Below are positions 24,355 through 63,295 of a stretch of DNA of 64,000 nucleotides, one piece after another. The stretch's first letter is position 1. Every line of letters starts with the position of its first letter. The notes beneath the pieces are model-generated. The model saw nothing but the letters and a program-made list of their open reading frames with translations, did no database searches and was not told the DNA's origin. A program made the position numbers and the translations under genes. Source of the stretch: Minisyncoccota bacterium (GTDB taxonomy: Bacteria; Patescibacteriota; Minisyncoccia; Phycocordibacterales; UBA9973); assembly GCA_041663185.1 (NCBI GenBank), contig JBAZQY010000001.1, forward strand, positions 117,298-181,297. Reading direction: 5' to 3'.

Positions 24355-24422
24355 GAAGTAGCAAGTAGTATGTAGTAAGGAATTAATTTCCCTTTCTACT
24401 TTCTACTTACTACCTACTACTT
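24355..24422. repeat. GTAG-heptad imperfect hairpin (REP-like repeat family member)
   Basis: Left arm gaaGTAGcaaGTAGtatGTAGtaagg and right arm cctttCTACtttCTACttaCTACctaCTACtt, built from 7-nt units GTAGNAA/TTNCTAC. Confidence 0.6.
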
Positions 24423-24428
24423 AATACT

Positions 24429-24819
24429 GGGGATGATCGGCTTCGACAAAATGAATCCTCTTATATATGCATGTAAAGTACCCAGGAATCTTTTAAAACT
24501 TCTTGGAAAAGACTAAGTGCAAACAAAGTCGCTTCAGTTCTTTCACCTTACTCTTTTGGGTTAGGTCAAAGAGCTCTTGCTTACGCCTAAACGGCTCCGG
24601 CAAGTGTTCATTCTTTTGACATCCGATATAAAGAGTGGGCATAATTTATCGGGTTACGATTTTACAAATGTCCGATGTAGAATTCGACAATTTAGGACTC
24701 GGTGTTTATCTTTCCTGTATGTCCTCTAGGATAAACATTTAAACCCAAGTGGACATAACAAACATGTAGAATTATCTAAGAGTTCCTTTTGCACGCGGGT
24801 TCGATTCCCGCCATCTCCA
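24429..24819 (+). ncRNA. ssrA: tmRNA (ssrA)
   Basis: 5' end GGGGATGATCGGCTTCGAC. The 3' T-arm GCGGGTTCGATTCCCGC plus acceptor CATCTCC pairs with the 5' end. An internal reading frame gca aac aaa ... gct ctt gct tac gcc taa encodes a tag ending ...RALAYA. Confidence 0.8.
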
Positions 24820-24865
24820 CAATTAAAAAACGTCCAGCAATGGGCGTTTTTTAATTGTGGAGATG
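24812..24865. terminator. 21-nt perfect inverted repeat incorporating the tmRNA 3' terminus
   Basis: catctccacaattaaaaaacg-tccagcaatggg-cgttttttaattgtggagatg. Confidence 0.55.
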
Positions 24866-25227
24866 AGAAAGCCAACTGCTTGGCTTTCGGCGGGAAGCGA
24901 AAGACTTTTCGTTATTTGCGAAGCAAATCGAAAAGTACCTGGCGATGTAATCGCCGATAAGTGTACTCACGGTCCCGCTATTTCTTGCGTGGAAATCAAA
25001 AGGTATACTGTCCTCGTAGAGGAAGATACTCAGACATCTCCACAACATTTTAAACCTTATTTTGTAAGGGTTATTTTACTTGACTTTTTTGTCAATCTAT
25101 GCTATCATTCTACTGGGTCAGTTCTTTGATATTTGGTTTTAAATTAAATTTGTTGGATTGTCTTTGCTCCCCTTTCTATGGAATAAAGACAATTCAATAA
25201 ATTTTTAAACACAAAAAACCAGAAAAA

Positions 25228-25725
25228 ATGAAAAAAATAATATTAACTTCAGAAACGGGATTAGAAATAATCAATGCCCTAAATAAAATTACTCAAAATC
25301 ATTATTTCACGATTGAGAAATGGTATTCAAATGAAAATCTTCCTTTATCTGATGATGATGTTAGTAATATTAAATGGGGGGAACAAAAAGATACTCTCAA
25401 AAATATCACCGTGAAAGCAGGATACACATCCGGAAAAGGTTACAATAGTGATTATGGTTGTATCGTTATGTCGCTATCACCCCTAGCTTTTGCGACACAT
25501 TTCGAAACAGGTTCTATTTTTTATATTTTTGATGATGAAATAGTTGTTGGAATATTAAATGGAAAAAATCAATTCCTATACAGGCGATATTCCATTGAAA
25601 AAGATAGCCCCGAAACTAAGAATCGCGAATACTGCAATCAGTCCGAAGCTGACAACTACAGGATGCATTTGGGTGAAAAGTGGGAAAATGACAACATGTT
25701 TGGAGTATCGGAAGAAGAGGATTAG
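25228..25725 (+). CDS. Hypothetical protein
   Basis: 165-aa ORF followed by a hairpin and T-tract at ~25726-25790. Confidence 0.4.
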   Translation: MKKIILTSETGLEIINALNKITQNHYFTIEKWYSNENLPLSDDDVSNIKWGEQKDTLKNITVKAGYTSGKGYNSDYGCIVMSLSPLAFATHFETGSIFYIFDDEIVVGILNGKNQFLYRRYSIEKDSPETKNREYCNQSEADNYRMHLGEKWENDNMFGVSEEED

Positions 25726-26116
25726 GCAATCCGCTTTTGCAGAAAAGGAAAATCCCTTTTCATTATGCAGAGCGGATTTTTCTTTTTATTCAATTCTCGT
25801 TGTAATACTAATAAGAAATTAACAAGAAATCACCTTTTTTGCTCTATTTTAGGAGTTTATTTAGATTAATGGTAAAATTACAAAAAATACTAAAACTATG
25901 AAAATACTAAAATATCTTTATTATTTTTGTGAACTTGGAAAAGATCCGTCGATATTGCGCACCAAATGACTGTCCTCATTTATTATGTCGAAAACGAAAA
26001 AATATTCATAAAAATGAAGAATGGTAAATACTTATAAAAAAGGGAGTTGGCATTAGTCAATCTCCCTTTTAAATTTTCTCATAAATTATTTATATCTTTA
26101 ACTTTTTCGTTTTTAT

Positions 26117-26416
26117 ATGCTACTCTTAAAGAAACTTAAAAAAATGGGAACACTGGAACCACTTAGTAGACGCACTCGCCTACTCTGGATGTATAATACT
26201 CTTATTCATCCACACCGTATCAAAATAATAATCGTATGTTTTGATTCTCGTGATAAAGCACTATATCCCTGTCATTTATCTCGTGACCAGGATGTTGAGA
26301 AAAAAATAAACAATATTTCAATCGAAACTCCAAATGTAATCATCATTGAGGTTATTGATTTGGATAAAGAACCGTTTGATGTATTCGATATGTTCGAGCT
26401 TGAAAATTTTTACTAG
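26117..26416 (+). CDS. Hypothetical protein
   Basis: 99-aa ORF followed by a bidirectional hairpin at ~26443-26480. Confidence 0.35.
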   Translation: MLLLKKLKKMGTLEPLSRRTRLLWMYNTLIHPHRIKIIIVCFDSRDKALYPCHLSRDQDVEKKINNISIETPNVIIIEVIDLDKEPFDVFDMFELENFY

Positions 26417-26510
26417 TAAAAATTTTCAAGCTCTTTTTTTATTACCAAAATTAAAAATTCCCACACCGAGTGTAGGAATTTTTAATTAAATAAATCTTTG
26501 TATTAAACAA

Positions 26511-26756
26511 TTACATAGGATTACTTGTTGGGGCACTTGTAGGCATTGCTTTAGCTTCACAGTGCTTACAATCTTTGCAGTGAGTAGCAACCAAAAAGAT
26601 TGCGGACAAACCAACTAGAATGTAAATGATTTTAGAGATTAGAGCATCTTGTCCTCCAAAAATCATTCCTACATCCCAACCAAAGAGACCCACAAGAAGC
26701 CAATTAAGACCTCCGATGATAACTAGAACAAATGCGATACCATGTATAACTTTCAT
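26511..26756 (-). CDS. DUF378-family small membrane protein
   Basis: GGLNWLLVGLFGWD motif and two TM helices, typical of DUF378. Confidence 0.55.
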   Translation of the reverse strand: MKVIHGIAFVLVIIGGLNWLLVGLFGWDVGMIFGGQDALISKIIYILVGLSAIFLVATHCKDCKHCEAKAMPTSAPTSNPM

Positions 26757-26864
26757 TTTTTTATTGTTAATTAAAAATTAATAATTCGACTCTTAGAACT
26801 TATATGCAGATATTATACCAAATATAAAAATCTTGGATAGCAATTTTTATGCTAAAATGGCATT

Positions 26865-28310
26865 ATGACACCACAACCAAAACTTACAGTTTCAGGATAT
26901 CGCGGGATTTGGGGAGAGAGTTTAACTCCTTTGATTATAGAGAATTATGTTTCTGCTTTTATTCAATTTGTGAAAGAAGATATAAATGATAAGCCGACAA
27001 TTCTTCTCGGGCGTGATGGTCGCGAAAGTGGCCCAGATATTAAAAAAATAGTGACAAGAACACTCCAGAAACTCGGTGTGAATTTCATTGATGGGGATAT
27101 TCTCCCAACTCCGACCGTTCTTTTCGCCGTCCGAAAACACAAATACGATAGCGCAATAATCATTACCGCTAGTCACAATCCGAGAGAATATAATGGACTA
27201 AAATTTGTAACCAACAAAGCACTTTTCACGGACGAAAAAGAAGTGGCAAAAATAAAAGAAAATTATGAAAAAATCACCAATAAAAATAAACTCCAACAGA
27301 ATATTCTTTCTGAAAGCACACATAAAACCCTACTGGGTTTTTGCTCTGCTCGGCCCGTCGGCCTGCGCAAGTCTTTCATAAAGAACATTCTGTCTTCGTT
27401 TATTAAAAAAATCAATTTCCCCAAAGAACACGCGGACCAAATTTTAAAACATATCAACGTAGAAAAAATTCGAGCTCATAAATTCAAAGTGGCTGTCGAT
27501 ATGATAAACGCTTCGGCTTGTGTCCTTGATCCATATTTATTTGAGCAACTTGGAGTCGAACTTATTCCTCTTAATAATATTCCTGATGGTAAATTTGCCC
27601 ATAAGCCAGAACCACTCCGAGAGAATTTAGGAGATATCGCGCAACTTGTAAAAGAAAAAAATTGCAACCTTGGCTTTGCTCACGACCCCGATGCTGACCG
27701 TCTGATTGTTATAAATGAAAAAGGTGAGGCCATTTCAGAAGAATATACTCTTGCCCTCGGGGTTGAAGCAATTCTTTCTAAAAACCATAACAATATCGCT
27801 GTTGTAAATATGTCCACCTCTCAAATGAATAGAGATATTGCCGAAAAATATGGTGGCAAATGTATCCGGACAAAAGTCGGTGAAGCAAACGTCGTTGCTG
27901 GTATTTTAGAGAACAATGCAATAATTGGTGGTGAAGGTGGTGGAGGAATTATTTACCCCACTATTAATATGGCTCGCGATAGTTTTGTTAGTTTGGCTTT
28001 AATTTTGGAATTATTGGCAGAAAGAGATCAAACTGTCACCGAATGTTTAGAAACACTTCCAAAATATGAAATGTGCAAAGACAAAGTGTCTGTTGTGGGT
28101 AGTTTAGAAGAAATGTATCTGAAGATGAAAAATCATTTCAAAAACGGAACTATAAATGAGCTTGATGGCCTTCGCCTCGACTTCCCTGATAACTCTTGGA
28201 TTCACTTACGACCCTCAAATACTGAGCCAATAGTTCGTCTTTATGGCGAAGCCCAGACAAAAGAAAGAATTACCGAATTATTCAAAGAAGCCCATGCTGT
28301 ACTTGCCTAA
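26865..28310 (+). CDS. Phosphoglucomutase/phosphomannomutase-family enzyme (GlmM/ManB-like)
   Basis: Active-site loop ITASHNP. The metal-binding loop FAHDPDADR is present. An unusual GC-rich in-frame segment lies at ~27316-27400. Confidence 0.75.
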   Translation: MTPQPKLTVSGYRGIWGESLTPLIIENYVSAFIQFVKEDINDKPTILLGRDGRESGPDIKKIVTRTLQKLGVNFIDGDILPTPTVLFAVRKHKYDSAIIITASHNPREYNGLKFVTNKALFTDEKEVAKIKENYEKITNKNKLQQNILSESTHKTLLGFCSARPVGLRKSFIKNILSSFIKKINFPKEHADQILKHINVEKIRAHKFKVAVDMINASACVLDPYLFEQLGVELIPLNNIPDGKFAHKPEPLRENLGDIAQLVKEKNCNLGFAHDPDADRLIVINEKGEAISEEYTLALGVEAILSKNHNNIAVVNMSTSQMNRDIAEKYGGKCIRTKVGEANVVAGILENNAIIGGEGGGGIIYPTINMARDSFVSLALILELLAERDQTVTECLETLPKYEMCKDKVSVVGSLEEMYLKMKNHFKNGTINELDGLRLDFPDNSWIHLRPSNTEPIVRLYGEAQTKERITELFKEAHAVLA

Positions 28311-28373
28311 AGATAGTCTTTATGCTAATATTCCCATTAGGTAGGTAATCTATTTTTCTATCGGACAATAAAA

Positions 28374-28877
28374 TTGAGAGAAAGAATAAACAATCAAATA
28401 CGAGCTTCTGAGGTTCGAGTAATCTCAAACGAAGGAGTTAATCTTGGTGTTTTAAGTATAAAAGAGGCCCAAGCACAAGCTGATTCGCAAGGACTTGATT
28501 TGATTGAAATTTCTCCCAATACTAATCCACCGATAGTCAAAATAGCAAATTTTGGTAAGTATCAATACGAACAAAATAAGAAACAGAAAAAAGCTAAAGC
28601 TGGAGCAAAAACAACCGAAACCAAAGCTGTTCAAATAAAAATCGGCACCGGCGACAATGACCTGGCTCTCAAGGCTAGAAAAGCATCAGAATGGCTCAAA
28701 GAAGGACATCGTATAAAAGTGGAATTATTTTTGTCAGGACGTTCCAAATATATGCCAGATGCATTCTTAAAAGAGCGGTTAGATCGTATTCTTCATCTTA
28801 TTACCGAAAATTATAAAATTGCCGAAAATTATAAAAAAGGTCCAAAAGGTCCAACAATTACAATTGAGAAGCAGTAG
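28374..28877 (+). CDS. infC: Translation initiation factor IF-3
   Basis: Conserved IF3 N- and C-domains (…INNQIRASEVRVI…, …LFLSGRSKYM…). The track uses a TTG start; an in-frame ATA at 28368 is an alternative, since IF3 genes typically use atypical start codons. Confidence 0.8.
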   Translation: MRERINNQIRASEVRVISNEGVNLGVLSIKEAQAQADSQGLDLIEISPNTNPPIVKIANFGKYQYEQNKKQKKAKAGAKTTETKAVQIKIGTGDNDLALKARKASEWLKEGHRIKVELFLSGRSKYMPDAFLKERLDRILHLITENYKIAENYKKGPKGPTITIEKQ

Positions 28878-28953
28878 AAAATAGCAAGCAGTAAGTAGAA
28901 AGGAAATTAAAAAAATAAATACCTTACTACATACTACCTACTACATACTACTT
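28871..28953. repeat. GTAG-heptad imperfect hairpin (REP-like family) between infC and rpmI
   Basis: Left arm gcaGTAGaaaaTAGcaagcaGTAAGTAGaaagg and right arm ccttaCTACataCTACctaCTACataCTACtt. Confidence 0.6.
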
Positions 28954-28960
28954 ATTATAT

Positions 28961-29158
28961 ATGTCTATTAAAACAAATAAATCTTTAACAAAGCGTTTAA
29001 AAATTACTAAAAATGGTAAGATATTGTCTCGTGCACCAGGATTCAATCATTTTAATGCGAAACAATCTAGAAAAAAACAATTAGGCGGTAAAAAAACAGC
29101 AAATTTTGCTATTTCAAATAGAAACCGACGTACATATCTGGCTACGTCAAAAATATAA
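28961..29158 (+). CDS. rpmI: 50S ribosomal protein L35
   Basis: 65 aa, basic, in the infC-rpmI-rplT arrangement. Confidence 0.8.
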   Translation: MSIKTNKSLTKRLKITKNGKILSRAPGFNHFNAKQSRKKQLGGKKTANFAISNRNRRTYLATSKI

Positions 29159-29185
29159 AAATTAATAATTTAATAATTAATCAAC

Positions 29186-29530
29186 ATGACAAGAGTTAAA
29201 AGAGGAACAATGAAAAATAAGCGCCGAAAGAATATCCTTGCCCAAACAAAAGGATTCCGTTTCGGACGCAGTACAAAAAAGATACAAGCTAAAGATGCAT
29301 TATTACACGCAGGGAATTATTCTTTTGCCCATCGCAAAGACAAAAAAGCAGATGCGAGAAGTTTGTGGACTACTAGAATTAACGCCGCAATCAGACCATT
29401 TGGAATGTCATACAGTAAATTCATTGATGGTTTAAAAAAGAAAAATATTATGGTTGACCGTAAAATTTTATCTGATATTGCTCAAAATAACCCAGAAGTG
29501 TTCGAAAGAATTGTAAAAAATATCGCATAA
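29186..29530 (+). CDS. rplT: 50S ribosomal protein L20
   Basis: MTRVKRG...KRRKNILAQTKGFRFGRS... conserved L20 N-terminus. Confidence 0.85.
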   Translation: MTRVKRGTMKNKRRKNILAQTKGFRFGRSTKKIQAKDALLHAGNYSFAHRKDKKADARSLWTTRINAAIRPFGMSYSKFIDGLKKKNIMVDRKILSDIAQNNPEVFERIVKNIA

Positions 29531-29558
29531 AAAAACCCTCCTCTCGGAGGGTTTTTTT
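29529..29558. terminator. Bidirectional intrinsic terminator
   Basis: aaaaaaa-ccctcc-tctc-ggaggg-ttttttt. Confidence 0.65.
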
Positions 29559-29561
29559 ATT

Positions 29562-30938
29562 TTAGCATTTTAGGATAACTGTCTCATTGTTTGTTGGGGT
29601 ATAAGCATCAACCCCAAGATTATCTTTCAACTTCTGAGCCAGAAACATTGCCGATTTCGGTTCTCCCATTACAACAAAAACTTTTTTTAAGGTATGAGCT
29701 GTATTTTCTACAAATTCAACTAAATGATCAGAGTCTTTGTGCCCCGAGTAGCCACTAATCATCTCTACGTGGGCGCGAACGATAGTCTCTTCACCAAAAA
29801 TGTGGACTTTTTTAGCTCCATCATAAATAAGTCGCCCGAGTGTCCCAATCGACTGATAACCAATCAATAGGATAGTATTATTCTTATCAGGTAGATAATT
29901 CTTTTCATGGTGCATTATACGACCACCTTTTGACATACCACTACCAGCAATAATTATTTTAGGTGGGGGTACTTTTAAAATTGCTTTCGATTCTTCTGTC
30001 TCCATTGTTTCTATTAAGCCTGGAAAATCAAAAAGTTTATCACCTGTTGCAATTATATCGCGGGCTGTTTTATTAAAATACTTATCATATTTCAAATAAA
30101 TATCTGTGAGTTTTATTGAAAGTGGTGAATCAAGAAATATCGGCAATTTAGACATTTCATCATTCTCATTAATAAAAGAATTCATTTCATAAAGTAATTC
30201 TTGTGTTCGCTCAAGGGAAAAAGTCGGTATCATAAGTACTCCCTTGCGAGTGTAATTTTCTCTTATTATTTCTTCAAGCTTCTTTTTACGCAAATCACGA
30301 TGTTCGTGATTGCGGTCTCCATAACATGATTCCATTATTAAATAATCCACGTTCTCAATTGGTTCATTATCCGGTAATAATGGCGATGGAGAATTACCAA
30401 GGTCCCCTGTGAAAACTATTTTCTTACCATTATAAATTATTTCCAGCATTCCAGAGCCAAGAATATGCCCAGAATTTTTGAAAGAAAATTGGAAGCCGTG
30501 GTCAATATTTATCTTCTGCCCATACTCAAATGTCTCCCATAGGTCCATAGCTTTCTTAATATTCTCTGGTGAATAAATTTTTGCCAAATCATATTCTGTA
30601 TCTTTCGATAAAATGTGGGCCGTGTCGGCCAACATCACTTCCGTAATTTCTTTTGTTGGAACAACTGAAATTATTCGCCCATTAAAACCTTCACTGATAA
30701 GCTTTGGAATACGCCCAATATGATCGACATGTCCATGGGTTATAAAAAGAATATCAATAGTCGAAGCATCATATGGAAACTTGTCCCAGTTTAGGTCGTC
30801 GGCGATTTTTTCTCCCTGAATTAATCCACAATCAATCAAAAATTTCTTGTCATTTCCCTCCAATAAAAAATTTGCTCCGGTAACAGTCCCTGCTCCAGAA
30901 CAAAAAGTCACTTTTAGATTTGTCTCATTTGTCATCAA
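29562..30938 (-). CDS. MBL-fold beta-CASP family ribonuclease-like hydrolase
   Basis: HxHxDH metallo-beta-lactamase motif (THGHVDHIG) plus a C-terminal beta-CASP-like region with conserved His. Confidence 0.65.
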   Translation of the reverse strand: MMTNETNLKVTFCSGAGTVTGANFLLEGNDKKFLIDCGLIQGEKIADDLNWDKFPYDASTIDILFITHGHVDHIGRIPKLISEGFNGRIISVVPTKEITEVMLADTAHILSKDTEYDLAKIYSPENIKKAMDLWETFEYGQKINIDHGFQFSFKNSGHILGSGMLEIIYNGKKIVFTGDLGNSPSPLLPDNEPIENVDYLIMESCYGDRNHEHRDLRKKKLEEIIRENYTRKGVLMIPTFSLERTQELLYEMNSFINENDEMSKLPIFLDSPLSIKLTDIYLKYDKYFNKTARDIIATGDKLFDFPGLIETMETEESKAILKVPPPKIIIAGSGMSKGGRIMHHEKNYLPDKNNTILLIGYQSIGTLGRLIYDGAKKVHIFGEETIVRAHVEMISGYSGHKDSDHLVEFVENTAHTLKKVFVVMGEPKSAMFLAQKLKDNLGVDAYTPTNNETVILKC

Positions 30939-30960
30939 ATCAATTATACCTTATATAGTT

Positions 30961-31075
30961 GAAAAATGGAATTTAAATAGCTCTTCTCGAAATACGCACA
31001 TAAAATTCTGCTGAATTTTTGCTATGCTCGGGCCGTCGCCCTGCGCAATGTATTTCTCAAAGACTATTTTAATTC
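30961..31075 (+). other. Diverged copy (about 80% nt identity) of an internal phosphomutase-gene segment (27301-27400); pseudogene fragment or mobile in-frame element
   Basis: Nucleotide alignment includes a GC-rich hairpin with a compensatory change (gggc...gccc versus ggcc...ggcc). The same-frame translation LNFCYARAVALRNVF resembles LGFCSARPVGLRKSF and is preceded by a stop. Confidence 0.5.
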
Positions 31076-31084
31076 CATTTTTCA

Positions 31085-31206
31085 ATAATCTTATAAAAAG
31101 ATAAACAAAATAGTCTTATCAGAGGGGCTTTTGAGCGCGACGGCGTGAAAACTGATCAAATTTCTAGTAAGAAATTTGATGTACCCTCTGGGAAGAGCTA
31201 TTTTGT
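31085..31206. repeat. ~120-nt nested imperfect palindrome
   Basis: Outer perfect 19-bp arms aaaaagataaacaaaatag/ctattttgtttatcttttt. Inner stems are cagaggg/ccctctg and atcaaatttc-tagtaa-gaaatttgat, with an asymmetric GC-rich bulge. Confidence 0.55.
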
Positions 31207-31510
31207 TTATCTTTTTTGTTTTCCTAATAAAAAATCCTCCCAAAAATGGAAGAATTTCTTATTAGGACTATCGAAGTTGTATTACCGTAGCACTAAGACT
31301 AGGTGGGATTACGGATAATAGGGATTTGTTAACGTAAAATTGTTTACAGTTCCTTATTAAAACTCTATATCCCCTAAAAAATTGTTCTAGGTAACACATT
31401 TCAAATAATCCTATCTTGAGTATACCCTCCGAAAATAATTACACAAGCGTTTTTACAAAAATAACACACTTTTGACAGCCCTTCAAATTGAGTTTTGAAT
31501 AAAGATATCG

Positions 31511-31608
31511 AAAAAACCCAATATAAAAATTTTATGAGTAGGTGTGGGCGCGCGCCGAGCGAAGCGAGGTAGGGATAAGCGAATAAAATTTTTATATTGG
31601 GCTTTTTT
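31511..31608. repeat. Palindromic repeat element with conserved GC-rich core, copy 3 of 3
   Basis: aaaaaaccca-atataaaaattttat-GAGTAGGTGTGGGCGCGCGCCGAGCGAAGCGAGGTAGGGATAAGCGAAT-aaaatttttatat-tgggctttttt. It is 3' of the CYTH gene. Confidence 0.8.
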
Positions 31609-31622
31609 ATAAGAAAAACTAT

Positions 31623-32180
31623 CTAAAAATCTTCCATTCCGTATTTTTCAAAAAGCATAATGTCATATTTACTACCAGCCAGATGATCCTCTTTTGAAAC
31701 TCCTAAATCCGAGAGGAAATTAAGCAATTCTTCTTGAATTTTTTGTCTAGATTCTGCATTTTCTTCAGAAACAATCCTTTCAACTTCAATAAATTCACCC
31801 AAATTCTCAACAACATCAATAACTATTTCCATCCCCTGTAGTTTTGTCTTAATTCTTTTCTTGTTTACAACTGGAACTTTTTTATAGTTAATAAGATGCA
31901 TAATTTCTAGCATTTTTTCTCCATCTGATATCTCGAGTTCGTGCTCAATGCAGTCCTGTCTATTGGATTGGGAAATTTTCATAGTGAAAATATTTTTATC
32001 GTTTTGCTTCCTGACTCTTAAAACAGGAACATTATAGGGTGGAGGAAAAACCATCTCTTTTGGAATAAAAATGTGGTCAATCTGGTGTAATTCTTCACCA
32101 AAAGAACAGCCCATATCCTCGAGTTTTTTAATTATTTCATCTTTATTTTTTAACCTTGCTTTTACTTCAACTTCGTACAT
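31623..32180 (-). CDS. CYTH-domain protein (class IV adenylate cyclase / triphosphate tunnel metalloenzyme family)
   Basis: N-terminus MYEVEVKARL and alternating charged beta-strand motifs typical of CYTH. About 185 aa. Confidence 0.5.
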   Translation of the reverse strand: MYEVEVKARLKNKDEIIKKLEDMGCSFGEELHQIDHIFIPKEMVFPPPYNVPVLRVRKQNDKNIFTMKISQSNRQDCIEHELEISDGEKMLEIMHLINYKKVPVVNKKRIKTKLQGMEIVIDVVENLGEFIEVERIVSEENAESRQKIQEELLNFLSDLGVSKEDHLAGSKYDIMLFEKYGMEDF

Positions 32181-32191
32181 ATTTGTATCAT

Positions 32192-32222
32192 ATCACAAAA
32201 TCCCCTTACGGGGATTTTGTGA
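32192..32222. terminator. Bidirectional terminator between ndk and the CYTH gene
   Basis: aaaatcccc-ttac-ggggatttt. Confidence 0.6.
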
Positions 32223-43523: not shown

Positions 43524-43552
43524 TGCATTTTTTTGAATTTATAATTCGTATT

Positions 43553-43587
43553 TTAATTCTTAATTCGTAATTATTAATTCTTAATTA
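43553..43587. repeat. 35-nt conserved AT-rich intergenic motif, copy A (rplF/rplR junction)
   Basis: ttaattcttaattcgtaattattaattcttaatta is identical to the copy at 44143..44177 and related to 47541..47573. Confidence 0.7.
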
Positions 43588-44142: not shown

Positions 44143-44177
44143 TTAATTCTTAATTCGTAATTATTAATTCTTAATTA
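44143..44177. repeat. 35-nt conserved AT-rich intergenic motif, copy B (rpsH/rplF junction)
   Basis: Identical 35-mer to copy A. Confidence 0.7.
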
Positions 44178-44184
44178 ATAATGA

Positions 44185-44565
44185 TTACCATAGTCTAAAT
44201 AATACTTCTCCTCCGACCATTTCTTTTCTAGCTTCTTTATCAGTCAAAATACCCTTGGGGGTAGAAAGAACTGTTAATCCATGACTTCTCTTTATATCTT
44301 TTACTCCTTTATAAACACGACAAGATGATTTGGAAATGCGATCAACGTCGGTTACTCTTGGGGCTCCATCTTCTACATAAGCCAATTCCAATTCGATAGT
44401 CGGAAACCCTTTTTTAGTTTTCTTGGTAACTCCCTTCAAATAACCTTCTTTAACTAGGCATTCAGCAATAGAAAATTTGAGTTTTGAATGAGGAACAACA
44501 ACAAACTCGTGGTGAGCTCGCCCTGCATTTTTTATCATATTCATCATGTTTGCTATTTGATCCAT
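44185..44565 (-). CDS. rpsH: 30S ribosomal protein S8
   Basis: MDQIANMMNMIKNA... conserved S8 N-terminus. Confidence 0.85.
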   Translation of the reverse strand: MDQIANMMNMIKNAGRAHHEFVVVPHSKLKFSIAECLVKEGYLKGVTKKTKKGFPTIELELAYVEDGAPRVTDVDRISKSSCRVYKGVKDIKRSHGLTVLSTPKGILTDKEARKEMVGGEVLFRLW

Positions 44566-45749: not shown

Positions 45750-45915
45750 AGTGTTTTGTTTTTTAAAATGAGTGAATAGTGAATTACCTTAAGCTACTAA
45801 ATGTCTAATAATTCAAGGCAATTCACTATTTCTCCTCAAAACAAAAATTATGAAAATTTTCAAAGAACTAAACACTCCTTATAGTATAGCATAATTGGGT
45901 AAAAAAGTCAAGAGA
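45750..45915 (-). promoter_or_regulatory. Conserved promoter + ~130-nt structured 5' leader, copy 1
   Basis: Minus strand: TTGACT-N17-TATACT, then a leader with hairpin gaaatagtgaattgcc...ggtaattcactattc. It is 85-90% identical to 46529..46700. Confidence 0.6.
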
Positions 45916-46528: not shown

Positions 46529-46700
46529 AATAATATTTGTTTTTAAATTGTGAGTGAATAGTGAATTACCTTGAGCTATTAAATGTCTAATAATCCAGGG
46601 CAATTCACTATTCTTTAAAACAAATATTATGAAAATTTTCAAAGAACTACATACTACTTATAGTATAGCATGATTAGGTGTAAAAGTCAATAGATAAAAC
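46529..46700 (-). promoter_or_regulatory. Conserved promoter + structured 5' leader, copy 2
   Basis: Minus strand: TTGACT-N17-TATACT with a near-identical leader hairpin to 45750..45915. Confidence 0.6.
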
Positions 46701-47540: not shown

Positions 47541-47573
47541 AATTCGTAATTGTTAATTATTAATTCTTAATTA
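47541..47573. repeat. Conserved AT-rich intergenic motif, copy C (rplN/rplX junction)
   Basis: aattcgtaattgttaattattaattcttaatta is a related variant of the 35-mer. Confidence 0.6.
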
Positions 47574-47574
47574 T

Positions 47575-47946
47575 TTATATAACTTCTTGGGCTAATGAAA
47601 TAATCTTTTGGTAACCGCGCTCAGCTAATTCTCTTGGAATTGGTCCGAAGACACGTCCACCCTTTGGATCAAGTTTATCCTTTTCTAAAATCACGACAGC
47701 ATTGTCATCAAAGCTAATATAAGAACCGTCTTTTCTTCTGAAGGTTTTTACTGTTCGAACAACAACGGCTTGGCAGACATCTTTTTTCTTGATTATTTTT
47801 CTTGGTTCAGCAATTTTTACTGAAATAATTACCTTGTCACCAATCGAAGCATAGCGACGCTTCGAAGAACCAAGTATTTTGAAAACCTTGCCAACCTTAC
47901 CGCCGGCATTGTCTGTGATATTTACTATTGTTCCGTCTTGAATCAT
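47575..47946 (-). CDS. rplN: 50S ribosomal protein L14
   Basis: MIQDGTIVNI.DN.G.K conserved L14 N-terminus. Confidence 0.9.
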   Translation of the reverse strand: MIQDGTIVNITDNAGGKVGKVFKILGSSKRRYASIGDKVIISVKIAEPRKIIKKKDVCQAVVVRTVKTFRRKDGSYISFDDNAVVILEKDKLDPKGGRVFGPIPRELAERGYQKIISLAQEVI

Positions 47947-52264: not shown

Positions 52265-52276
52265 ATTTTTTTCTTA

Positions 52277-53062
52277 CTACTTACTACTTACTACTTTTTC
52301 AATCTTCCCACCCAAAAAAGCAATGCTTTCCTTGGGTTGTGAAATTATAATGTATCGGAATGCGAGTAAATCAACAGGATTAATATTGCGAATTTCATCT
52401 ATCTCAACTGTTTTTATATTTGCAAAACTTTTCTTAATAGTATCTGTTTTTGCAGGAATTGTGATGTAGGTATTTGGATTTTTCCCTCCAACCATCCTCT
52501 CAAAACCCTTGATGGTACTCAATTCCTTGATAACATTTACAGCATCTTTTGTTTTGATATTTTTCAAAGTTAGTTCTTCTAAGAAAAGAACTTGCCCTTT
52601 TCGAAACTTTTCTGACAAAACACTAAAGAGCGCTCCGACTTTCATTTTTTTGTTTATTTTTTGTTCATAGCTCTTCTCATTTCGTGGACCATGAGTTACA
52701 CCTCCACCTTTCCAGATAGGAGAACGTGTCGACCCATGACGAGCACGTCCAGTTCCTTTTTGACGCCATGGTTTTTTACCTCCCCCACGAACCTCTCCGC
52801 GTGTTCTTGTGTGTGCAACTGGAGTTCGAGCATTTGCTTGCATCGCAGTCACAACTTGGTGAACCAAGTCACCATTCCATTTAAGTCCAAAAATTGATTC
52901 AGGAAGAGAAAGCTTCCCGACAGATTTTCCTTTTTGGTTGTAAACTTCTGTCTCTATCCCGGCAGGAATTGCTTTTGGGGCTTTTTCTTTGGGTGTTGCT
53001 GTGGTCTTTTTTGTCGCCGTCACTGTAGTTTTATTCTTTTTTTGTGTGTTATCTTTTTCCAT
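52277..53062 (-). CDS. rplD: 50S ribosomal protein L4 (Lys/Thr-rich N-terminal extension)
   Basis: ...RGEVRGGGKKPWRQKGTGRAR.GS.RSP.W.GGG... conserved L4 loop. The last 5 codons (VVSSK) are encoded by a (CTTACTA)3 heptad array at 52273..52293. Confidence 0.85.
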   Translation of the reverse strand: MEKDNTQKKNKTTVTATKKTTATPKEKAPKAIPAGIETEVYNQKGKSVGKLSLPESIFGLKWNGDLVHQVVTAMQANARTPVAHTRTRGEVRGGGKKPWRQKGTGRARHGSTRSPIWKGGGVTHGPRNEKSYEQKINKKMKVGALFSVLSEKFRKGQVLFLEELTLKNIKTKDAVNVIKELSTIKGFERMVGGKNPNTYITIPAKTDTIKKSFANIKTVEIDEIRNINPVDLLAFRYIIISQPKESIAFLGGKIEKVVSSK

Positions 53063-55316: not shown

Positions 55317-55513
55317 ATATTTTTTTATTGGTTGATAAAAAGAATAAAATATACGAGAACCTTACTTTATTCAAACTATCAACATAAATTATTAATAATA
55401 TTTACCTCGCCTCAAAGCGAGGTTACCGCCTCTAGGCGATAATTGATGACTCTCATACTAGCAAATCTAAAAATAAAGTCAACACTGCAAAAATTTAGAT
55501 TGACAATGGGCAC

Positions 55514-55541
55514 AAAAAATCCCCTCGCGAGGGGATTTTTT
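55514..55541. terminator. Bidirectional intrinsic terminator downstream of the giant surface-protein gene
   Basis: aaaaaatcccctc-gcga-ggggattttttg. Confidence 0.65.
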
Positions 55542-55553
55542 GTGCTACTTATT

Positions 55554-58500: not shown

Positions 58501-59717
58501 GCCGTTGTTGGATTTGGGGCAGAAGCGATAAGATCAGCGACGGTTGCAGTACATTTTGCTCCATCCCAACTACTCCCCGTAGCACAATTCAAAGTAATCG
58601 TCTGACTTGCAAGATCATTCGAGGCATAAGTTGGATTGTTTAGTGTATTATTTTGTCCATCAACTCTATTTTTAGAAATTAAAGTTCCTGTTCCGCTAGT
58701 TGCTCCTAGTGGAATTACACCAATTCCAGAAAGAGTTACGAGACTAGAGTTTCCTGAGGTTCCAACAGTACTATTATTACCGTTCCAAACAAAAGTATTG
58801 TAATTATCTTTCGGACTAGTTGTTGTCCAATTCATAGAAATCTGACAACTATTGCCATTAGCTGGAATTATACAAGAAGATGATCCAGCCGGAACCAGAG
58901 TTCCAGATTGTCCTTGAACATTTTCTGTGGAACTTGAAAAAATAGGATTTGATATATCAGGACCACATTTTAATTGGAAAAGGTTTGTATCGTTCTGGTT
59001 TAGAACATCTATATTTTGATTAAAAACAAAAGACGAAAAAGGAAGAAGGGCTTCCGTTGCACCTGAAGGAAGCACTTTAAATGCTGTAGTTCCACTATTT
59101 TTCAATACACAACTATCTCCTGTAGGGAAATCCCATGCAGTAACAGTCAAATATGCTGTCCCTATACCAGAGGTGTTAGAATCATTCTTCTTTACTATAT
59201 TTTTAATTCGAGTTTGATCTTTTGAAAGAGAAACTGCTGCTACCAAAACCGTAGCTTCTCCAGAAATTGAGCCGTTGGAGCCAGTACAAACTATAGGGTA
59301 AGAAGTGTGTTCTGTAGGGCTCACAGAAATACTTCCTCCTGTCGCAGTAGAACCGAGTACTCCCGTATCACAACTATCAGCACCAACTGATGACCAAGTA
59401 ATAGTTGAATTTTGTCCAGGATATATATATGCCGGGTTTGCAGTAACATTAATATCCATTCCTTCACCCCCGCCACCATTATTATCACCTATCCATTGGC
59501 ACCATGTTGCTTTGTTTAAATGGTAATATGGGTCTTGGTCACATTCAATGTCTGTATGGCGATTTGTGCAATGTTCATTTTCCTGATGAAATGGTTCCGT
59601 GTCTGGAACAGTATAATCAACAGTACAATATCCTTCTGCATTAACAATCGAACTTGAACTCAAAAAAATAGTAAAAATAAAGACAAACAATAAAAGAGAA
59701 TATTTAAATAGTTTCAT
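55554..59717 (-). CDS. Giant (1387 aa) secreted/surface protein with ~6 tandem CARDB-like repeats and a thrombospondin-type-1-like (TSP1) Cys module
   Basis: Signal peptide MKLFKYSLLLFVFIFTIFLSSSSIVNA. The ~110-aa repeats each have PDLIAS.P.PT...G....F...ITN.G.A and MRVCAD....E.NE.NNCS.WT.ITV. The segment WSICGAGDWSACSVPCGGGTQTCIRTC matches the TSP1 pattern. Confidence 0.6.
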   Translation of the reverse strand: MKLFKYSLLLFVFIFTIFLSSSSIVNAEGYCTVDYTVPDTEPFHQENEHCTNRHTDIECDQDPYYHLNKATWCQWIGDNNGGGGEGMDINVTANPAYIYPGQNSTITWSSVGADSCDTGVLGSTATGGSISVSPTEHTSYPIVCTGSNGSISGEATVLVAAVSLSKDQTRIKNIVKKNDSNTSGIGTAYLTVTAWDFPTGDSCVLKNSGTTAFKVLPSGATEALLPFSSFVFNQNIDVLNQNDTNLFQLKCGPDISNPIFSSSTENVQGQSGTLVPAGSSSCIIPANGNSCQISMNWTTTSPKDNYNTFVWNGNNSTVGTSGNSSLVTLSGIGVIPLGATSGTGTLISKNRVDGQNNTLNNPTYASNDLASQTITLNCATGSSWDGAKCTATVADLIASAPNPTTAVPGVYKTFSAVITNQGQGSTERSFANKFQTSTLPNGEGTITDYAVSPNMDILLGGESNATSKSIKFNTAGEYGMRVCADLPPVSPGTIDNESDEGNNCSSWTTITVASGSLPDLIASTPTPTTASPGTTTFYSTITNQGNASTLSTFTNVFQTATSIGDNGPEGVVNYVTSSTSILASGASTTTQRSINFSAGAYYMRVCADKNMSMNGSEPESNEGNNCSSPWIMITVTSPVGPPDLVASAPSPTMALPNIAKTYSSTITNQGGGSTGSGFSNLFQTATGFDGDNNPLGLINYPVNVSPLMSALGPGSSTPTSKSITFNTAGTYYMRVCADLPPDNPGTITNEYNENNNCSPWTAITVALFGGQPDLIASTPIPTVAQTGVSTTFYSTITNRGIASTGGSFANKFQTRNSIGVVVDYPVLGAPMSPLGPGATAVTSRAITFSLAGTYDIQACADMPPNNPGTITIESNEGNNCSGWTSITVGGSLPDLITSSITPTTALVGVDTPFSVTISNIGTAGTVIGFKNLVQMTNSPSGFNAPDDVGVIATIALASGETRVLTKNYKFTQAGIYYMRVCADKDSASNYGVVGESSESNNCGEWTMITVPGTMSGPDLIASSPTPTTVSPGVSTLFSSTITNQGNASTVNKFTNLFQLSTLPNGNGIVTDYPVIPEMNALAQGASATTSRAFTFNVGTYYMRVCADKSSQIDTGDIPESNELNNCSGEWTTITVSNDMSGTLLPFNPTCFIPLNGTSCTQTLTWTTINPIGTSAVTSPTGIPSPVNGNNGSQSFTVPHNDLGVNFFLYNSEILLAQTNVTTACVLGTDWDGAKCAVIPIDGGWSICGAGDWSACSVPCGGGTQTCIRTCTNPVPQNGGADCPPPAEMTQICNTQACSGGGGAVTVDLSATKPIIFKGKSSDLVWTSTGATSCTGDVFETGGATSGSTTVFPLTTTTYTITCTDGGSLAQAQDTQKITVINPIIIEN

Positions 59718-59900
59718 ACTTATCTAGCCATAGCTATTTGCGTAGGCGAATTAATTTAATAATGATGTCAAAAACTAAATTTATTTAGTTATGTAAATTA
59801 TACCATAAAATGTAATACAAAAATATAAAGAGTAGTTATCCACAAATAAAAAAGAGGCTACTTTATAAAAGCAGCCTCAAAGTTACTAACAAAAATCTAT

Positions 59901-60863
59901 CTAATTATGGATACGTATAAATGTTTCCCTTGTCATCAGTTGAGCCCCCAGCGGATGATATTGCCAGACCAAAGTATCTGAAGAAAGAGAAACAATTTCA
60001 CGAGTATCAATGTTACCATTGTTACTAAGAATCAATGTGTTTCCTTCTAAAGACCAATTGAATTCGGCCATTGTGGGTTCAGTACCACATTTAATTTCTC
60101 CAAAATTCGCTATCATTCTTGAATCCGGACAATATGTAGTTGTGTCATCAGAAAAACAAAGTCTCGGTTCTCCAGGCACCCATTCGTTCCCAGGAGGAAC
60201 CTCGAAATATATTGCCGATATTCCTCCCCATGAGCCCATTTTGGAAGAGATAGTATCAGCTCTTGTTGGAGCATTAACTGTGATGGAAACACTACATCTC
60301 CCTTCTTCAACACCATTATTATAACCAATGGCATCATAGGTTTTGGAAGCATCCAAAAGTGGTGTCTCAATGGTATCACTGGAAGAACTGTTCCAGTTCC
60401 AACCCTCTATGTTGGTCCAAATGGAGTCACAACCATAACTTTCGATTGTGATTGAAGTAGCTGTCCGCCAGGGAATCTGAGTACTTGAAGCACTCATCTT
60501 AAGTGGCAGGTGGCCAAACACGTAGCATATTTTTTCTACACTTATCGGGATACGTTCGTCCCAATAAAATGTAATCGTGACGGAGCTCATACCCTCTTCT
60601 GCCATAATGACAGTGGTGGTATCTTGTAACGGGTCTTTGTCGAATATTGTATCTCCGGTGGGGAATACAACGCTCACCCTGTCAGCACCGTTTGATGAGA
60701 ATGGGATACTAATCACTTTTCCTACCATTCCATGCACCTGGCTGGGAACGTTAGTGATTTTATATTTTTGTGTATCTTCATTCGGAGGACTTTCTTTCTC
60801 GCATCCTGTTAAAAACCACAGGGAAAGAGAAAAGACGATTATCAGAAAAGTCTTGGTCTTCAT
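59901..60863 (-). CDS. Hypothetical lipoprotein
   Basis: Lipobox ...LWFLTGC at residues 17-21. GC appears higher (low-to-mid 40s %) than the surroundings. Confidence 0.5.
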   Translation of the reverse strand: MKTKTFLIIVFSLSLWFLTGCEKESPPNEDTQKYKITNVPSQVHGMVGKVISIPFSSNGADRVSVVFPTGDTIFDKDPLQDTTTVIMAEEGMSSVTITFYWDERIPISVEKICYVFGHLPLKMSASSTQIPWRTATSITIESYGCDSIWTNIEGWNWNSSSSDTIETPLLDASKTYDAIGYNNGVEEGRCSVSITVNAPTRADTISSKMGSWGGISAIYFEVPPGNEWVPGEPRLCFSDDTTTYCPDSRMIANFGEIKCGTEPTMAEFNWSLEGNTLILSNNGNIDTREIVSLSSDTLVWQYHPLGAQLMTRETFIRIHN

Positions 60864-61031
60864 ATTGTTCAGTTTTTTGTTTTTTTGTGAATAGGTTAAT
60901 TTATATTTATCCCGACAAACCCTTATTTCTCAAGATAAATATAAATTAACCCGAACAAAGTACTTACCCATATTATCCTACTTTACTAGAGGTTTTGTCA
61001 AGGAGTTATCCCCATTTTATCCCCACCCACA

Positions 61032-61058
61032 ATATAGCGAAGTCCGACTTCACTATAT
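61032..61058. repeat. REP-like palindrome immediately 3' of the RAYT-like gene
   Basis: atatagcGAAGTC-c-GACTTCactatat. Confidence 0.6.
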
Positions 61059-61790
61059 CTATTCCATATCTAAAATAACCTCTTGTGGTAAATTTTCATT
61101 ATTTTTTAAATTAAATGATTCAATCCAATTTAAAATTTCCTTTTTCTGTTTTTCTTCACCCCCTAATCTATGTAATAAAAAATCTTTTTTAATTATCGAT
61201 GGAAAATTTTTTTGACCAACATAGTCCAAATAACTGCTCCATCTGTATTTATTCAAAAAATCAATAGCTTTTTCGAGATCATTAATTTTTCCCTCTCTCC
61301 ACTCTTTAAATTTATAATCAAGCGGATTTAAGTGGATATATATCGGTAAATACATCAAATGTGAATCTTTTTTTAGATTGACTGATTTAAATTTCCCCTG
61401 AAAAAGTGCCCCAGTTCTTTCATATTTTTTATTAAAATAATTTGTATATCCAGTTCCTAATTTCCGCATGAATTCTGTAATTCCATTTTCTGTCTTTTGT
61501 CTAACCATCAAATGAAAATGATTATCCATCAAACAATAAGCCAAAATCTCCACCAATACTTCCCTAGGTTTTCTCGTAATATTAGGAAGTCCGACTTCCT
61601 TAAGTTTATTATTTTTTGACTTGAGGTATAAAGCTAAGTTAATTGTTGGGTTCTTATCATTAAACTCAAATAAATCGTGAACGAAGCGAAATCTATCATC
61701 GTCATCCATGAAAATATTGCGTTTATCTACACCTCTATTATAAATATGATAGATTTCTCCAAAAACTAAATGTGTTTTTCTTAATGACAT
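61059..61790 (-). mobile_element. RAYT-like Y1/HUH transposase-like protein (REP-associated tyrosine transposase family)
   Basis: YHIYNRG, DDDDRFRF, HUH motif YCLMDNHFHLMV, then ...GTGYTNYFNKKYERTGALFQGKFKS...IYIHLNP, matching the family signature. An internal REP-like palindrome lies at 61582..61603. Confidence 0.6.
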
Positions 61791-61816
61791 AATTGTATTA
61801 TATCACCAAAAACAAA

Positions 61817-61841
61817 CTATAGGAAGTCGGACTTCCTATAG
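61817..61841. repeat. REP-like perfect palindrome immediately 5' of the RAYT-like gene
   Basis: ctataGGAAGTC-g-GACTTCCtatag. Confidence 0.65.
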
Positions 61842-61887
61842 TTTTAAATTTGACCGCGAAGACACTTTATAGTAGTATTTATTTTGT

Positions 61888-61910
61888 AAGTCCGTTCTCG
61901 AACCGGACTT
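61888..61910. repeat. REP-like hairpin followed by a T-tract
   Basis: AAGTCCG-ttctcgaac-CGGACTT followed by ttatttttat. agtagtat lies just upstream. Confidence 0.5.
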
Positions 61911-62026
61911 TTATTTTTATCAGCCCTCGCACAGAGCCACGGCTAGATGAAAGGAAAATTATAATTTAATAAAAAGGTATTCGGATTTTAGCTAGCACCT
62001 AGAAACTGGAACCTAGAAACTAATCT

Positions 62027-63211
62027 ATGTTAGATTTAAAAACAATGAAGTCGGCCCTCGAGCAACTCGAGCAGGAAAGAAAAATTCCTCGCGAAAAAAT
62101 AATCGACGCTATCGAACAAGCTCTGGCTGCCGCCTATAAAAAAGATTACGGGAAAAAAGGTCAAATCATTCGCGCCAAGATAGATATTGAAACTGGCGTG
62201 ATGGAATTTTATCAAATCAAAATTGTTGTCGACGATACACTAGTTCGGATGACTGAAGAAGACGAGGAAGAAGAAATCGCTGAAGACGATGAGAGAGTTC
62301 GTTTCAACGAGGAACATCATATCCTGATCGAAGATGCAAAAAAAATAAAAAAGAATGTTGTACCTGGAGAAGAATTAGTCTTCCCTCTTGAAAATAAAGA
62401 TGATTACGGCCGTATCGCTGCTCAAACCGCCAAACAAGTTATTATTCAAAAAATTCGCGAAGCAGAACGTGGAGCGATTATTGATGAATATGGAAATAAA
62501 GAAGGAGAAATAATAAATGGCTTCGTTTCAAAAGTAGAAAGGGGAATTGTTTATATTGATTTCAATCGGGCAACAGGAATTATTTTACCTGAAGAACAAA
62601 TCCCTGGCGAATTCTATCGCCGTGGCGATAGAATTCGCGCCTATTTATATTCCGTCGAAGAAACTCCCCGTGGCGTAAATCTTAAACTTTCACGAACTCA
62701 TCCTGAACTTATTGATGGATTATTCGCCATGGAAGCCCCAGAAATTGCTTCGGGTGTTGTCGAAATAAAATCAATCGCCCGTGAAGCTGGAAGTCGTTCA
62801 AAGATCGCAGTTTTCTCAAATGATGAGCATGTTGACCCTGTCGGTTCATGTGTCGGACAAAAAGGTGTTCGCGTCACAACTGTCATGAGTGAATTAAATG
62901 GTGAAAAAATAGATATTATTCCTTGGTCCGCCGACCCAGAAAGTTATATTGCAAGTGCTATTTCTCCAGCCAATGTTCTTTCTATTGATGTAAATGAAAA
63001 TGAACACAAGGCCGTAATTGAAGTTGCAAATGATCAACTCTCTCTTGCCATCGGAAAGGGTGGACAAAATGTCCGCCTAGCTGCCAAACTTACTGGTTGG
63101 AGAATAGATATAAAAAGTACAGAAGGAAAAATTGAAACCTCTGGAGAAATTGCCGATAGTGATGTTATACTAGATGATGGTATTGTTGATGATGGTACTG
63201 ATGATAAGTAA
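62027..63211 (+). CDS. nusA: Transcription termination/antitermination factor NusA
   Basis: N-terminal RNAP-binding domain, an S1 domain, tandem KH domains (...IGKGGQNVRLA...) and an acidic C-terminus. Confidence 0.9.
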   Translation: MLDLKTMKSALEQLEQERKIPREKIIDAIEQALAAAYKKDYGKKGQIIRAKIDIETGVMEFYQIKIVVDDTLVRMTEEDEEEEIAEDDERVRFNEEHHILIEDAKKIKKNVVPGEELVFPLENKDDYGRIAAQTAKQVIIQKIREAERGAIIDEYGNKEGEIINGFVSKVERGIVYIDFNRATGIILPEEQIPGEFYRRGDRIRAYLYSVEETPRGVNLKLSRTHPELIDGLFAMEAPEIASGVVEIKSIAREAGSRSKIAVFSNDEHVDPVGSCVGQKGVRVTTVMSELNGEKIDIIPWSADPESYIASAISPANVLSIDVNENEHKAVIEVANDQLSLAIGKGGQNVRLAAKLTGWRIDIKSTEGKIETSGEIADSDVILDDGIVDDGTDDK

Positions 63212-63295
63212 TTAGTAGTAGGTAGAAAGTAGCAGGTAGTAAGAAAAAGAATTTGGAATTTCCCTTACTACTTACTACATATTACTTGCTACATT
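63212..63295. repeat. GTAG-heptad imperfect hairpin (REP-like family) downstream of nusA
   Basis: Left arm ttaGTAGtagGTAGaaaGTAGcagGTAGtaag and right arm cccttaCTACttaCTACatattaCTtgCTACatt. Confidence 0.6.

Follow-up and report, generated by a model that had tools for sequence, protein, structure and literature searches.

GTAG-heptad hairpins behind stop codons in operon spacers of a Minisyncoccota bacterium

Among the long simple repeats of bacteria, those with heptamer units are the most frequent, and we describe here a family of them with a GTAG core in a 64,000-nucleotide stretch of contig JBAZQY010000001.1 (assembly GCA_041663185.1, positions 117,298 to 181,297), which comes from a Minisyncoccota bacterium of the candidate phyla radiation (CPR; Paceibacterota). 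We refer to this whole 64-kb stretch as the window, and counts of elements and motifs refer to it. The window contains three hairpins of about 78 nt each (W1, W2 and W3) together with two single arrays. The hairpins are inserted, stop-flanked stems situated in intercistronic operon spacers right after stop codons. We propose that they probably, though by no means certainly, represent lineage-specific, fast-evolving heptanucleotide repeats of the 'convergent heptamer pair' kind known as (GGGANTN)n in Xanthomonas and Nostoc. With its GTAG core the family is a new instance of an architecture that is already described and poorly understood. The five elements are as follows.

24351-24428: hairpin W1, between the smpB stop codon and the 5' end of the transfer-messenger RNA (tmRNA); left arm 24351-24378, right arm 24393-24427; 5' arm GTAGGAA GTAGCAA GTAGTAT GTAGTAA, apex GGAATTAATTTCCC, 3' arm of five NNNCTAC-type units.
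28874-28951: hairpin W2, between infC and rpmI; left arm 28874-28901, right arm 28924-28951; 5' arm GTAGAAA ATAGCAA GCAGTAA GTAGAAA (two cores decayed), apex GGAAATTAAAAAAATAAATACC, 3' arm TTACTAC ATACTAC CTACTAC ATACTAC.
63215-63292: hairpin W3, between nusA and hppA (encoding an H+-translocating pyrophosphatase, H+-PPase); left arm 63215-63242, right arm 63265-63292; 5' arm GTAGTAG GTAGAAA GTAGCAG GTAGTAA, loop ending in GGAATTTCCC, 3' arm of four units.
3327-3344, plus strand: half copy, CA-GTAGCAA-GTAGTAA-GGAGGA, a left arm with the start of the apex motif and without a right arm.
52273-52296, minus strand: single direct array (GTAGTAA)3 at the rplD 3' end, without an inverted partner.

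The general layout is thus a 5' arm of (GTAGNAN)4, a short GGAA...TTCC(C) apex and a 3' arm of (NTNCTAC)4-5, with 4, 5, 4, 4, 4 and 4 units in the six arms of the three hairpins. Copies at different loci also have sequence outside the heptads in common, namely CA-GTAG... at the left, AAGGAA...TTCCCTTA-CTAC, and the apex AAGGAA...TTCCC-TTA. A target-site duplication was looked for at the copies and none was consistent; every copy finishes with CTAC-TTA(A) on the right, and CA-GTAG is frequent on the left. The preliminary description of this DNA had reported heptad-built hairpins after smpB, infC and nusA and a single-arm copy near pilC, and both observations hold, the hairpin sequences being as it gave them and the half copy being located at 3327-3344, where it is flanked by pilC and a pilin gene, both on the minus strand.

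The placement of the hairpins relative to their neighbours is close and repetitive. Gene names were confirmed with Pfam and ARAGORN (SmpB, IF3, L35, L20, NusA, H+-PPase, the pilC-type T2SSF, L4, Y1_Tnp and tmRNA), and in all three cases the flanking genes are co-directional on the plus strand (smpB to ssrA, infC to rpmI, nusA to hppA), so that none of the hairpins lies at a convergent gene end, the setting for which a test of enrichment had been suggested earlier. The distance from the upstream stop codon to the hairpin is 0 nt for W1, 0 nt for W2 and 3 nt for W3. The smpB stop codon (TAG, 24352-24354) and the infC stop codon (TAG, 28875-28877) are situated within the first heptad of W1 and W2 respectively, and the nusA stop codon (TAA, 63209-63211) precedes W3. 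On the downstream side the tmRNA (ssrA, 24429-24820, as predicted by ARAGORN) begins 1 nt past W1, the rpmI ATG (28961) lies 10 nt past W2, and the H+-PPase gene starts at 63366. This location inside operons implies that the hairpins are co-transcribed with the genes that flank them.

Stop codons occur in all six frames of W1, W2 and W3, the first of them no more than 18 nt from either end. As 7 is not a multiple of 3, every arm places TAG in all three frames, and with TAG or TAA in three frames on both strands a copy that overlaps the 3' end of a gene therefore supplies a new stop codon, as at smpB, infC and rplD. At rplD the direct array codes for the last L4 residues, V V S S K, and then for the stop codons TAG and TAA; the translated tail reads ...KIEKVVSSK followed by the two stops, which bears out the earlier proposal that the array encodes the L4 C-terminus, and the rplW ATG follows 9 nt further on.

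Two further observations concern the sequences on either side of these insertions. Tandem duplications of 18-nt, 9-nt and 15-nt units are present at 28800-28854 and 63173-63205, inside the 3' ends of infC and nusA and just upstream of W2 and W3, and the C-termini of IF3 are highly variable among relatives. An independent assembly of the organism (L122, a Logan contig from SRR6484324) corresponds to window positions 28957-30903 and is broken exactly at the 3' end of W2; a break at this point is consistent with the repeat being multi-copy in the genome.

The arrays are far from what base composition would produce. The motif GTAGNAAGTAG, allowing at most one mismatch, has 24 matches compared to 2.09 +/- 1.34 in dinucleotide shuffles, the comparison that the preliminary description had named as the check on its motif, and 0 of 100 shuffles reach 24. 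Distances between GTAG tetranucleotides peak at 7, 14 and 21 nt, and Tandem Repeats Finder reports period-7 arrays at every site. With a G+C content of 34-39% and numerous further short tandem repeats, the genome would suit a chance product of AT-rich low-complexity sequence. However, the shuffle test refutes this explanation, intergenic DNA loses its lag-7 autocorrelation once the GTAG elements and a second, AATTA, element family (described below) are masked, and the same architecture is found at orthologous sites in three other genomes; we give the chance explanation virtually no credence. The loss of the lag-7 signal on masking both families likewise led us to reject a general heptad periodicity of the intergenic DNA.

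The units themselves are constrained in an uneven manner. Counting 51 units from the window and three relatives, deviations from G1 T2 A3 G4 n5 A6 n7 number 3, 2, 0, 3, 21, 0 and 15 per position (chi-square p = 3e-12), that is, positions 1-4 and 6 (G, T, A, G, A) are nearly invariant while 5 and 7 vary freely. The predicted folds of W1-W3 beat shuffled controls on both strands, with z between -2.2 and -8.3. A search of the window and 16 hairpin loci against Rfam 15, in both gathering and E-value modes, returned only tmRNA and tRNAs, the hairpins themselves giving chance-level matches to miRNA precursors.

A hairpin that follows a stop codon invites the question of termination. W1-W3 cannot act as efficient terminators, because the distances from W1 to the tmRNA and from W2 to rpmI are such that a promoter would not fit between them, and efficient termination at W1 or W2 would therefore silence essential genes downstream. 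An intrinsic (rho-independent) terminator was accordingly rejected on position and on the missing T-run: no T-run was found after the stem at W1-W3, and a terminator scan of the window does not flag the hairpins. A variant of the idea is that they are non-canonical (bidirectional or partial) terminators or attenuators, in which an A/G-rich 5' arm and a U/C-rich 3' arm mimic the A-tract, stem and U-tract. The location directly after stop codons would agree with such a role, as would the one-way order of the arms, purine-rich 5' and pyrimidine-rich 3' on both strands, which is a requirement of a bidirectional terminator. Nevertheless the objections of promoter space, silenced essential genes, absent T-run and unflagged stems apply here too, and operon ends elsewhere in the window carry canonical terminators with a G+C stem and a T-run (for example at 29527-29560 and 26396-26433), so that we regard the variant as highly improbable.

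The distribution of the hairpins among relatives provides further insights into their behaviour. A metagenome scan with IF3 gave 80 related loci, and the infC-rpmI spacer was compared in about 60 of these. In most of them the spacer is 5-15 nt long, and only three (L162, L164 and L172) have a GTAG-heptad hairpin there. The smpB-ssrA gap in relatives is 3-40 nt, and L164 carries the right arm of a hairpin at this site as well. Orthologous copies have site-specific unit variants in common (four genomes have CTACATA at the infC site, and two have CTACTTT at the smpB site), and the copies in L162, L164 and L172 differ in the number of units and at positions 5 and 7. In a tree built from concatenated IF3, L35, L20 and RNase J all hairpin bearers fall in one clade with 100% support. 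Within it, however, genomes with and without the hairpin group together as sisters with strong support: the window and L125 form one pair and L172 and L159 another, both at 100% bootstrap, and the short spacer of L159 is the ancestral one. This patchy pattern needs one of three things, repeated loss, allele exchange between relatives, or repeated site-specific gain.

The same spacer accommodates other hairpins. In L125, to which the window is most closely related, the infC-rpmI site holds a hairpin of another kind, 122 nt long (6499-6620) and composed of ACGAAT/ATTCGT units, and inserts similar to it are present after infC in two more distant relatives, L184 and L188. The infC-rpmI spacer is thus a hot spot for unit-built hairpins. 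In syntenic relatives the nusA-hppA spacer (L301/L302 8384-8582, L304 8366-8454) is occupied not by a counterpart of W3 but by AATTANN and TTAGTAA heptads and a small hairpin ACTGATTACCAATT/AATTGGAATCAGT; TTAGTAA differs from GTAGTAA by one substitution.

A closely similar anatomy has been described elsewhere with other cores. Rehm et al. 2015 reported heptameric repeats in convergent orientation, in Xanthomonas as (GGGAATC / GGGANTN)n and in Nostoc as GGGGA(C/T)T (PMC4692102). In the Xanthomonas repeats positions 1-4 and 6 are conserved and the majority of arrays have four units; there are about 185 per genome, 70-75 pairs per genome are 'always' convergent, and 89-93% are intergenic, at a mean of 28 nt from the upstream open reading frame (ORF) as against 160 nt to the downstream one (PMC4692102). 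Their neighbours are mostly co-oriented, length and sequence vary extensively between close species, and no function was found (PMC4692102). The GTAG elements resemble these repeats in each of the following respects: units conserved at 1-4 and 6 and free at 5 and 7, mostly four units per array, two convergent arrays able to form a stem-loop, an intergenic position nearer to the end of the upstream ORF, co-oriented neighbours, and variation in length and sequence between close relatives. They are unlike them in others. The host is a CPR bacterium; each unit has a stop codon, and copies overlap and replace the stop codons of genes; and the core is GTAG rather than GGGA, hence there is no G-quadruplex or i-motif. 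In the best-studied case, the GGGAATC repeats of Xanthomonas, G-quadruplex or i-motif formation was the rationale offered for the four-unit preference (PMC4692102). In the GTAG elements a quadruplex is not possible because the units lack G tracts, no G run being present in the 51 units, and the same anatomy without quadruplex potential suggests that the common rules, namely the constancy of positions 1-4 and 6, the four units per arm and the purely convergent order, belong to the class and not to quadruplex chemistry. The preliminary description had regarded the family as undescribed. Our literature search for the repeat sequences found no relevant paper, and to this extent the statement stands, although the anatomy, with a different core, was already known from Xanthomonas and Nostoc.

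Other heptamer repeats are more distantly comparable. Those said to be found in cyanobacteria as STRR (short tandemly repeated repetitive) elements reportedly have units that can extend both arms of the P12 helix of RNase P, and the GTAG elements are like them in that heptamer arrays lie in intercistronic spacers. MacGregor 2015 described TAACTGA direct repeats of marine Beggiatoaceae, cyanobacteria and Bacteroidetes, in 169 direct sets and one inverted (PMC4679880). The GTAG arrays are similarly intercistronic, including in ribosomal-protein operons, have stops in all three forward frames, in some cases overlap the upstream stop codon, and occur in a host with few Shine-Dalgarno sites (PMC4679880). 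However, the TAACTGA repeats are almost all direct and just upstream of start codons, whereas the GTAG elements are mainly inverted pairs. A second heptad family in the window, (AATTANN)n, forms direct arrays on the minus strand at 43542-43586, 44143-44187 and 47547-47575, with a common motif of about 35 nt, AATTAAGAATTAATAATTACGAATTAAGAATTAAA. These arrays begin at or right after a stop codon and fill spacers between ribosomal-protein genes, and they resemble the Beggiatoaceae TAACTGA arrays (PMC4679880) even more closely than the GTAG elements do.

If the hairpins are convergent heptamer pairs of the Xanthomonas and Nostoc kind, a plausible history is that the arms grow, shrink and homogenise by replication slippage, and that the element is dispensable and repeatedly lost, or else exchanged between relatives. 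Its tolerance at gene ends would follow from the stops that it provides in every frame. In the transcript the stop-flanked stem may separate neighbouring cistrons, for instance by keeping terminating ribosomes off the 5' end of the tmRNA, and after processing it could protect or stabilise the upstream 3' end or guide processing, as is thought for STRR hairpins and for those of repetitive extragenic palindromic (REP) sequences. A minimal CPR genome with intercistronic gaps of 5-15 nt here tolerates inserts of about 80 nt in essential operons (smpB-ssrA, infC-rpmI-rplT, nusA), and such loci are natural test cases for the effects of hairpins on the coupling, processing and stability of polycistronic RNA.

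Several observations weigh against this account. Slippage by itself accounts neither for the constancy of positions 1-4 and 6 nor for the preference for four units or the single arm order. The junctions attgagaag(t)caGTAG are near-identical in the window, L162 and L172 despite the hairpin-less sisters, a pattern for which simple vertical inheritance with loss hardly accounts; a recombination tract was sought for L172 in comparison with its sister L159 and none was visible, the flanks being closest to L159 until about 10 nt from the junction. Finally, in 5 of 6 copies the RNA of the sense strand folds less stably than that of the antisense strand (for W2, -14.5 vs -33.4 kcal/mol). This asymmetry does not favour a role for the sense RNA, and the folds give no consistent sign that the sense transcript is under selection.

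As slippage leaves the fixed positions, the four-unit preference and the one-way order unexplained, a broader reading may be entertained, namely that the GTAG hairpins are one face of cross-phylum 'heptad-coded' convergent repeats, whose rules would reflect a heptad-reading machinery and not slippage or G-quadruplexes. We consider this possible but doubtful. It may cover the CPR, Clostridia, Verrucomicrobia, Chloroflexi, Gammaproteobacteria and phage contigs and, with a core of different sequence, also Xanthomonas and Nostoc; the class rules may be that positions 1-4 and 6 are constrained, that there are about four units per arm, that the purine-rich arm comes first and that the elements follow stop codons. 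The candidate machinery may be a mobilising or templating enzyme, or a protein that binds RNA or single-stranded DNA (ssDNA).

The wider distribution was surveyed by a scan for four GTAGNAN units in 185,579 species genomes, which gave at least 120 loci in many phyla, and by a viral scan that gave 96 loci. Among the bacterial and viral matches listed there are 42 pairs in the order GTAG then CTAC (about 33 distinct hairpins) and 0 in the reverse order. When 15 hairpins (three from the window, three from relatives and nine from other phyla) were checked for position, an ORF of at least 100 codons was found to stop at -10 to +15 nt of the array start in 13. Both the arm order and this position count in favour of the convergent heptamer pair. 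Single GTAGNAN arrays across phyla are, among the matches listed, heterogeneous simple repeats, many of them possibly coding on the opposite strand.

Some of the distant elements have features of their own. In Clostridia and phage contigs (L015, L077, L110, L238, L240, L258, L262, L267 and L295) the arms are GTAGGAG / CTCCTAC, the former combining a UAG stop with the Shine-Dalgarno sequence AGGAGG and the latter being anti-Shine-Dalgarno-like. These elements enclose a conserved palindromic core, GGTTTTATATAGTCATGACTATATAAAACC, with up to three copies in 6 kb, and several of them embed a GTAG-tagged GC palindrome, GTAGCGCGGCCTTCAGCCGC. L015 and L077 are two copies in one genome with a common internal segment, which is behaviour like that of miniature inverted-repeat transposable elements. 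In a Verrucomicrobia GTAG-heptad hairpin (L090 3681-3767) the loop holds GCCGGCCAGGCGGGGTGTACGCCTTATCTC-CTAC, which we take to resemble an E. coli-type REP.

The GTAG tetranucleotide and a nearby transposase-like gene had earlier suggested a link to REPs, to bacterial interspersed mosaic elements (BIMEs) and to REP-associated tyrosine transposases (RAYTs). The gene and its flanks are as follows.

61059-61790, minus strand: Y1 gene of the HUH type, 243 aa, Pfam Y1_Tnp E = 1.7e-8, with HUH and YIHLNP motifs.
61030-61056 and 61815-61843, on both sides of the Y1 gene: flanking palindromes (T)AGGAAGTCSGACTTCCTA.

According to this explanation the hairpins would be miniature elements, like REPs or the hairpin-forming REP doublets (REPINs), mobilised in trans by a Y1 transposase with the GTAG cores as a recognition or cleavage tag. 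The largest REP superfamily is tagged by GTAG; in it a palindrome body (6-13 bp stem, short loop) lies beside an unpaired terminal GTAG and head-head (HH) dimers carry GTAG outside (PMC3733652). The elements here have the tetranucleotide in common with the GTAG-tagged REPs, REPINs and BIMEs (Di Nocera et al. 2013, PMC3733652; Bertels & Rainey 2011, PMC3116915), and their inverted pairs, like the HH dimers, have GTAG outside and can fold into one long hairpin. They are also located downstream of coding regions, REPs being found between unidirectional or convergent genes. As in REP/RAYT systems a Y1/RAYT-like gene is present in the same genome, here 1.4 kb from W3. When the Y1 protein was compared by tblastn with 204 loci, it matched only the same organism, L172 and L069, and the latter two both carry GTAG hairpins; a hidden Markov model from three Y1 proteins gave no further match in 300 loci, viral ones included. 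The patchy distribution among relatives would suit mobile elements, as would the GTAG-tagged GC palindromes that lie within the GTAG-heptad elements of certain viral contigs and the REP resemblance noted above for the L090 loop.

Notwithstanding these similarities, the arms are pure tandem GTAGNAN units arranged head to tail, with no 6-13 bp palindrome body beside each GTAG as a REP would have. The Y1 gene is flanked by a palindrome of its own, AGGAAGTCSGACTTCC, and not by GTAG repeats. The different core of these flanking palindromes had been pointed out before, and we find that (T)AGGAAGTCSGACTTCCTA is indeed unrelated to the heptads, occurs within the window only at the Y1 gene, and is kept around the Y1 orthologues in L301, L304 and L305. 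Orthologues with 83% and 74% identity keep the Y1-nusA-hppA synteny in two lineages, and a homologue of 72% is found elsewhere; across these loci of 12-21 kb (L301/L302, L304 and L305-L307; Y1 homologues 72-83% identical) there is no GTAG array of at least two units. The two hairpin-bearing loci with a Y1 homologue, L172 and L069, each have their own, different palindrome flanking it. Against the NCBIfam model REP_Tyr_transpos the protein scores 35.7 bits with a cut-off of 80, and the family is widespread (more than 7000 homologues at E <= 1e-10, with identities of 60-83% among the best 120), in contrast to the sporadic hairpins. The Y1 gene looks like a vertically inherited, possibly domesticated cassette. 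The relation to REPs and RAYTs is thus one of resemblance, in the GTAG core and in the GTAG-outside order of HH dimers; membership is not supported, and we judge mobilisation by the Y1 transposase to be unlikely.

An arrangement with fixed and free positions in a strict register could alternatively serve for recognition. On this hypothesis the arms would be arrays of sites on RNA or ssDNA for an oligomeric protein, each of whose subunits would read one heptad, on the model of HutP, TRAP or the cold-shock proteins; the protein would regulate the adjacent cistrons. The fixed core at 1-4 and 6 and the freedom at 5 and 7, a pattern known also from the Xanthomonas heptamers, and the strict 7-nt period with about four units per arm are compatible with it. 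HutP binds UAG-N4-UAG-N4-UAG, its site (UAG-N4)3 being a set of single-stranded direct repeats in one regulatory leader, on the hut mRNA of Bacillus in the Firmicutes. The UAG spacing of the GTAG arrays equals that of the HutP site, with UAG triplets at a 7-nt period, but the arrays are paired, dispersed and symmetric. A second precedent is B. subtilis CspB, which, in the passage of PMC4679880 that cites the work, binds heptamer repeats with one protein per heptamer. However, base-pairing takes up most of each arm and would conceal the sites, the elements are symmetric with respect to the two strands, and most close relatives have the same operons without the elements. No candidate protein was identified, although no search for a HutP homologue was made. 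We therefore think a binding-site function very unlikely, and prefer the convergent heptamer pair as the description of these elements.

Some other elements in the window are of a different kind. A palindromic element is present in two copies in the ribosomal-protein gene cluster, at 45775-45830 and 46556-46613 (AATAGTGAATTACCTTRAGCTAYTA / TAATAATYCARGGCAATTCACTATT). Three long AT-rich inverted repeats are located at 12831-12937, 21804-21906 and 31511-31607, with arms of 25-29 nt and spacers of 47-49 nt, and two more inverted repeats, at 30959-31085 and 31095-31216, have spacers of 83-84 nt; the long inverted repeats may represent further intergenic element families. ARAGORN also predicts a tRNA-Ile with anticodon UAU (21657-21731) and a tRNA-Ser with anticodon ACU (15258-15345), both anticodons being unusual for bacteria.

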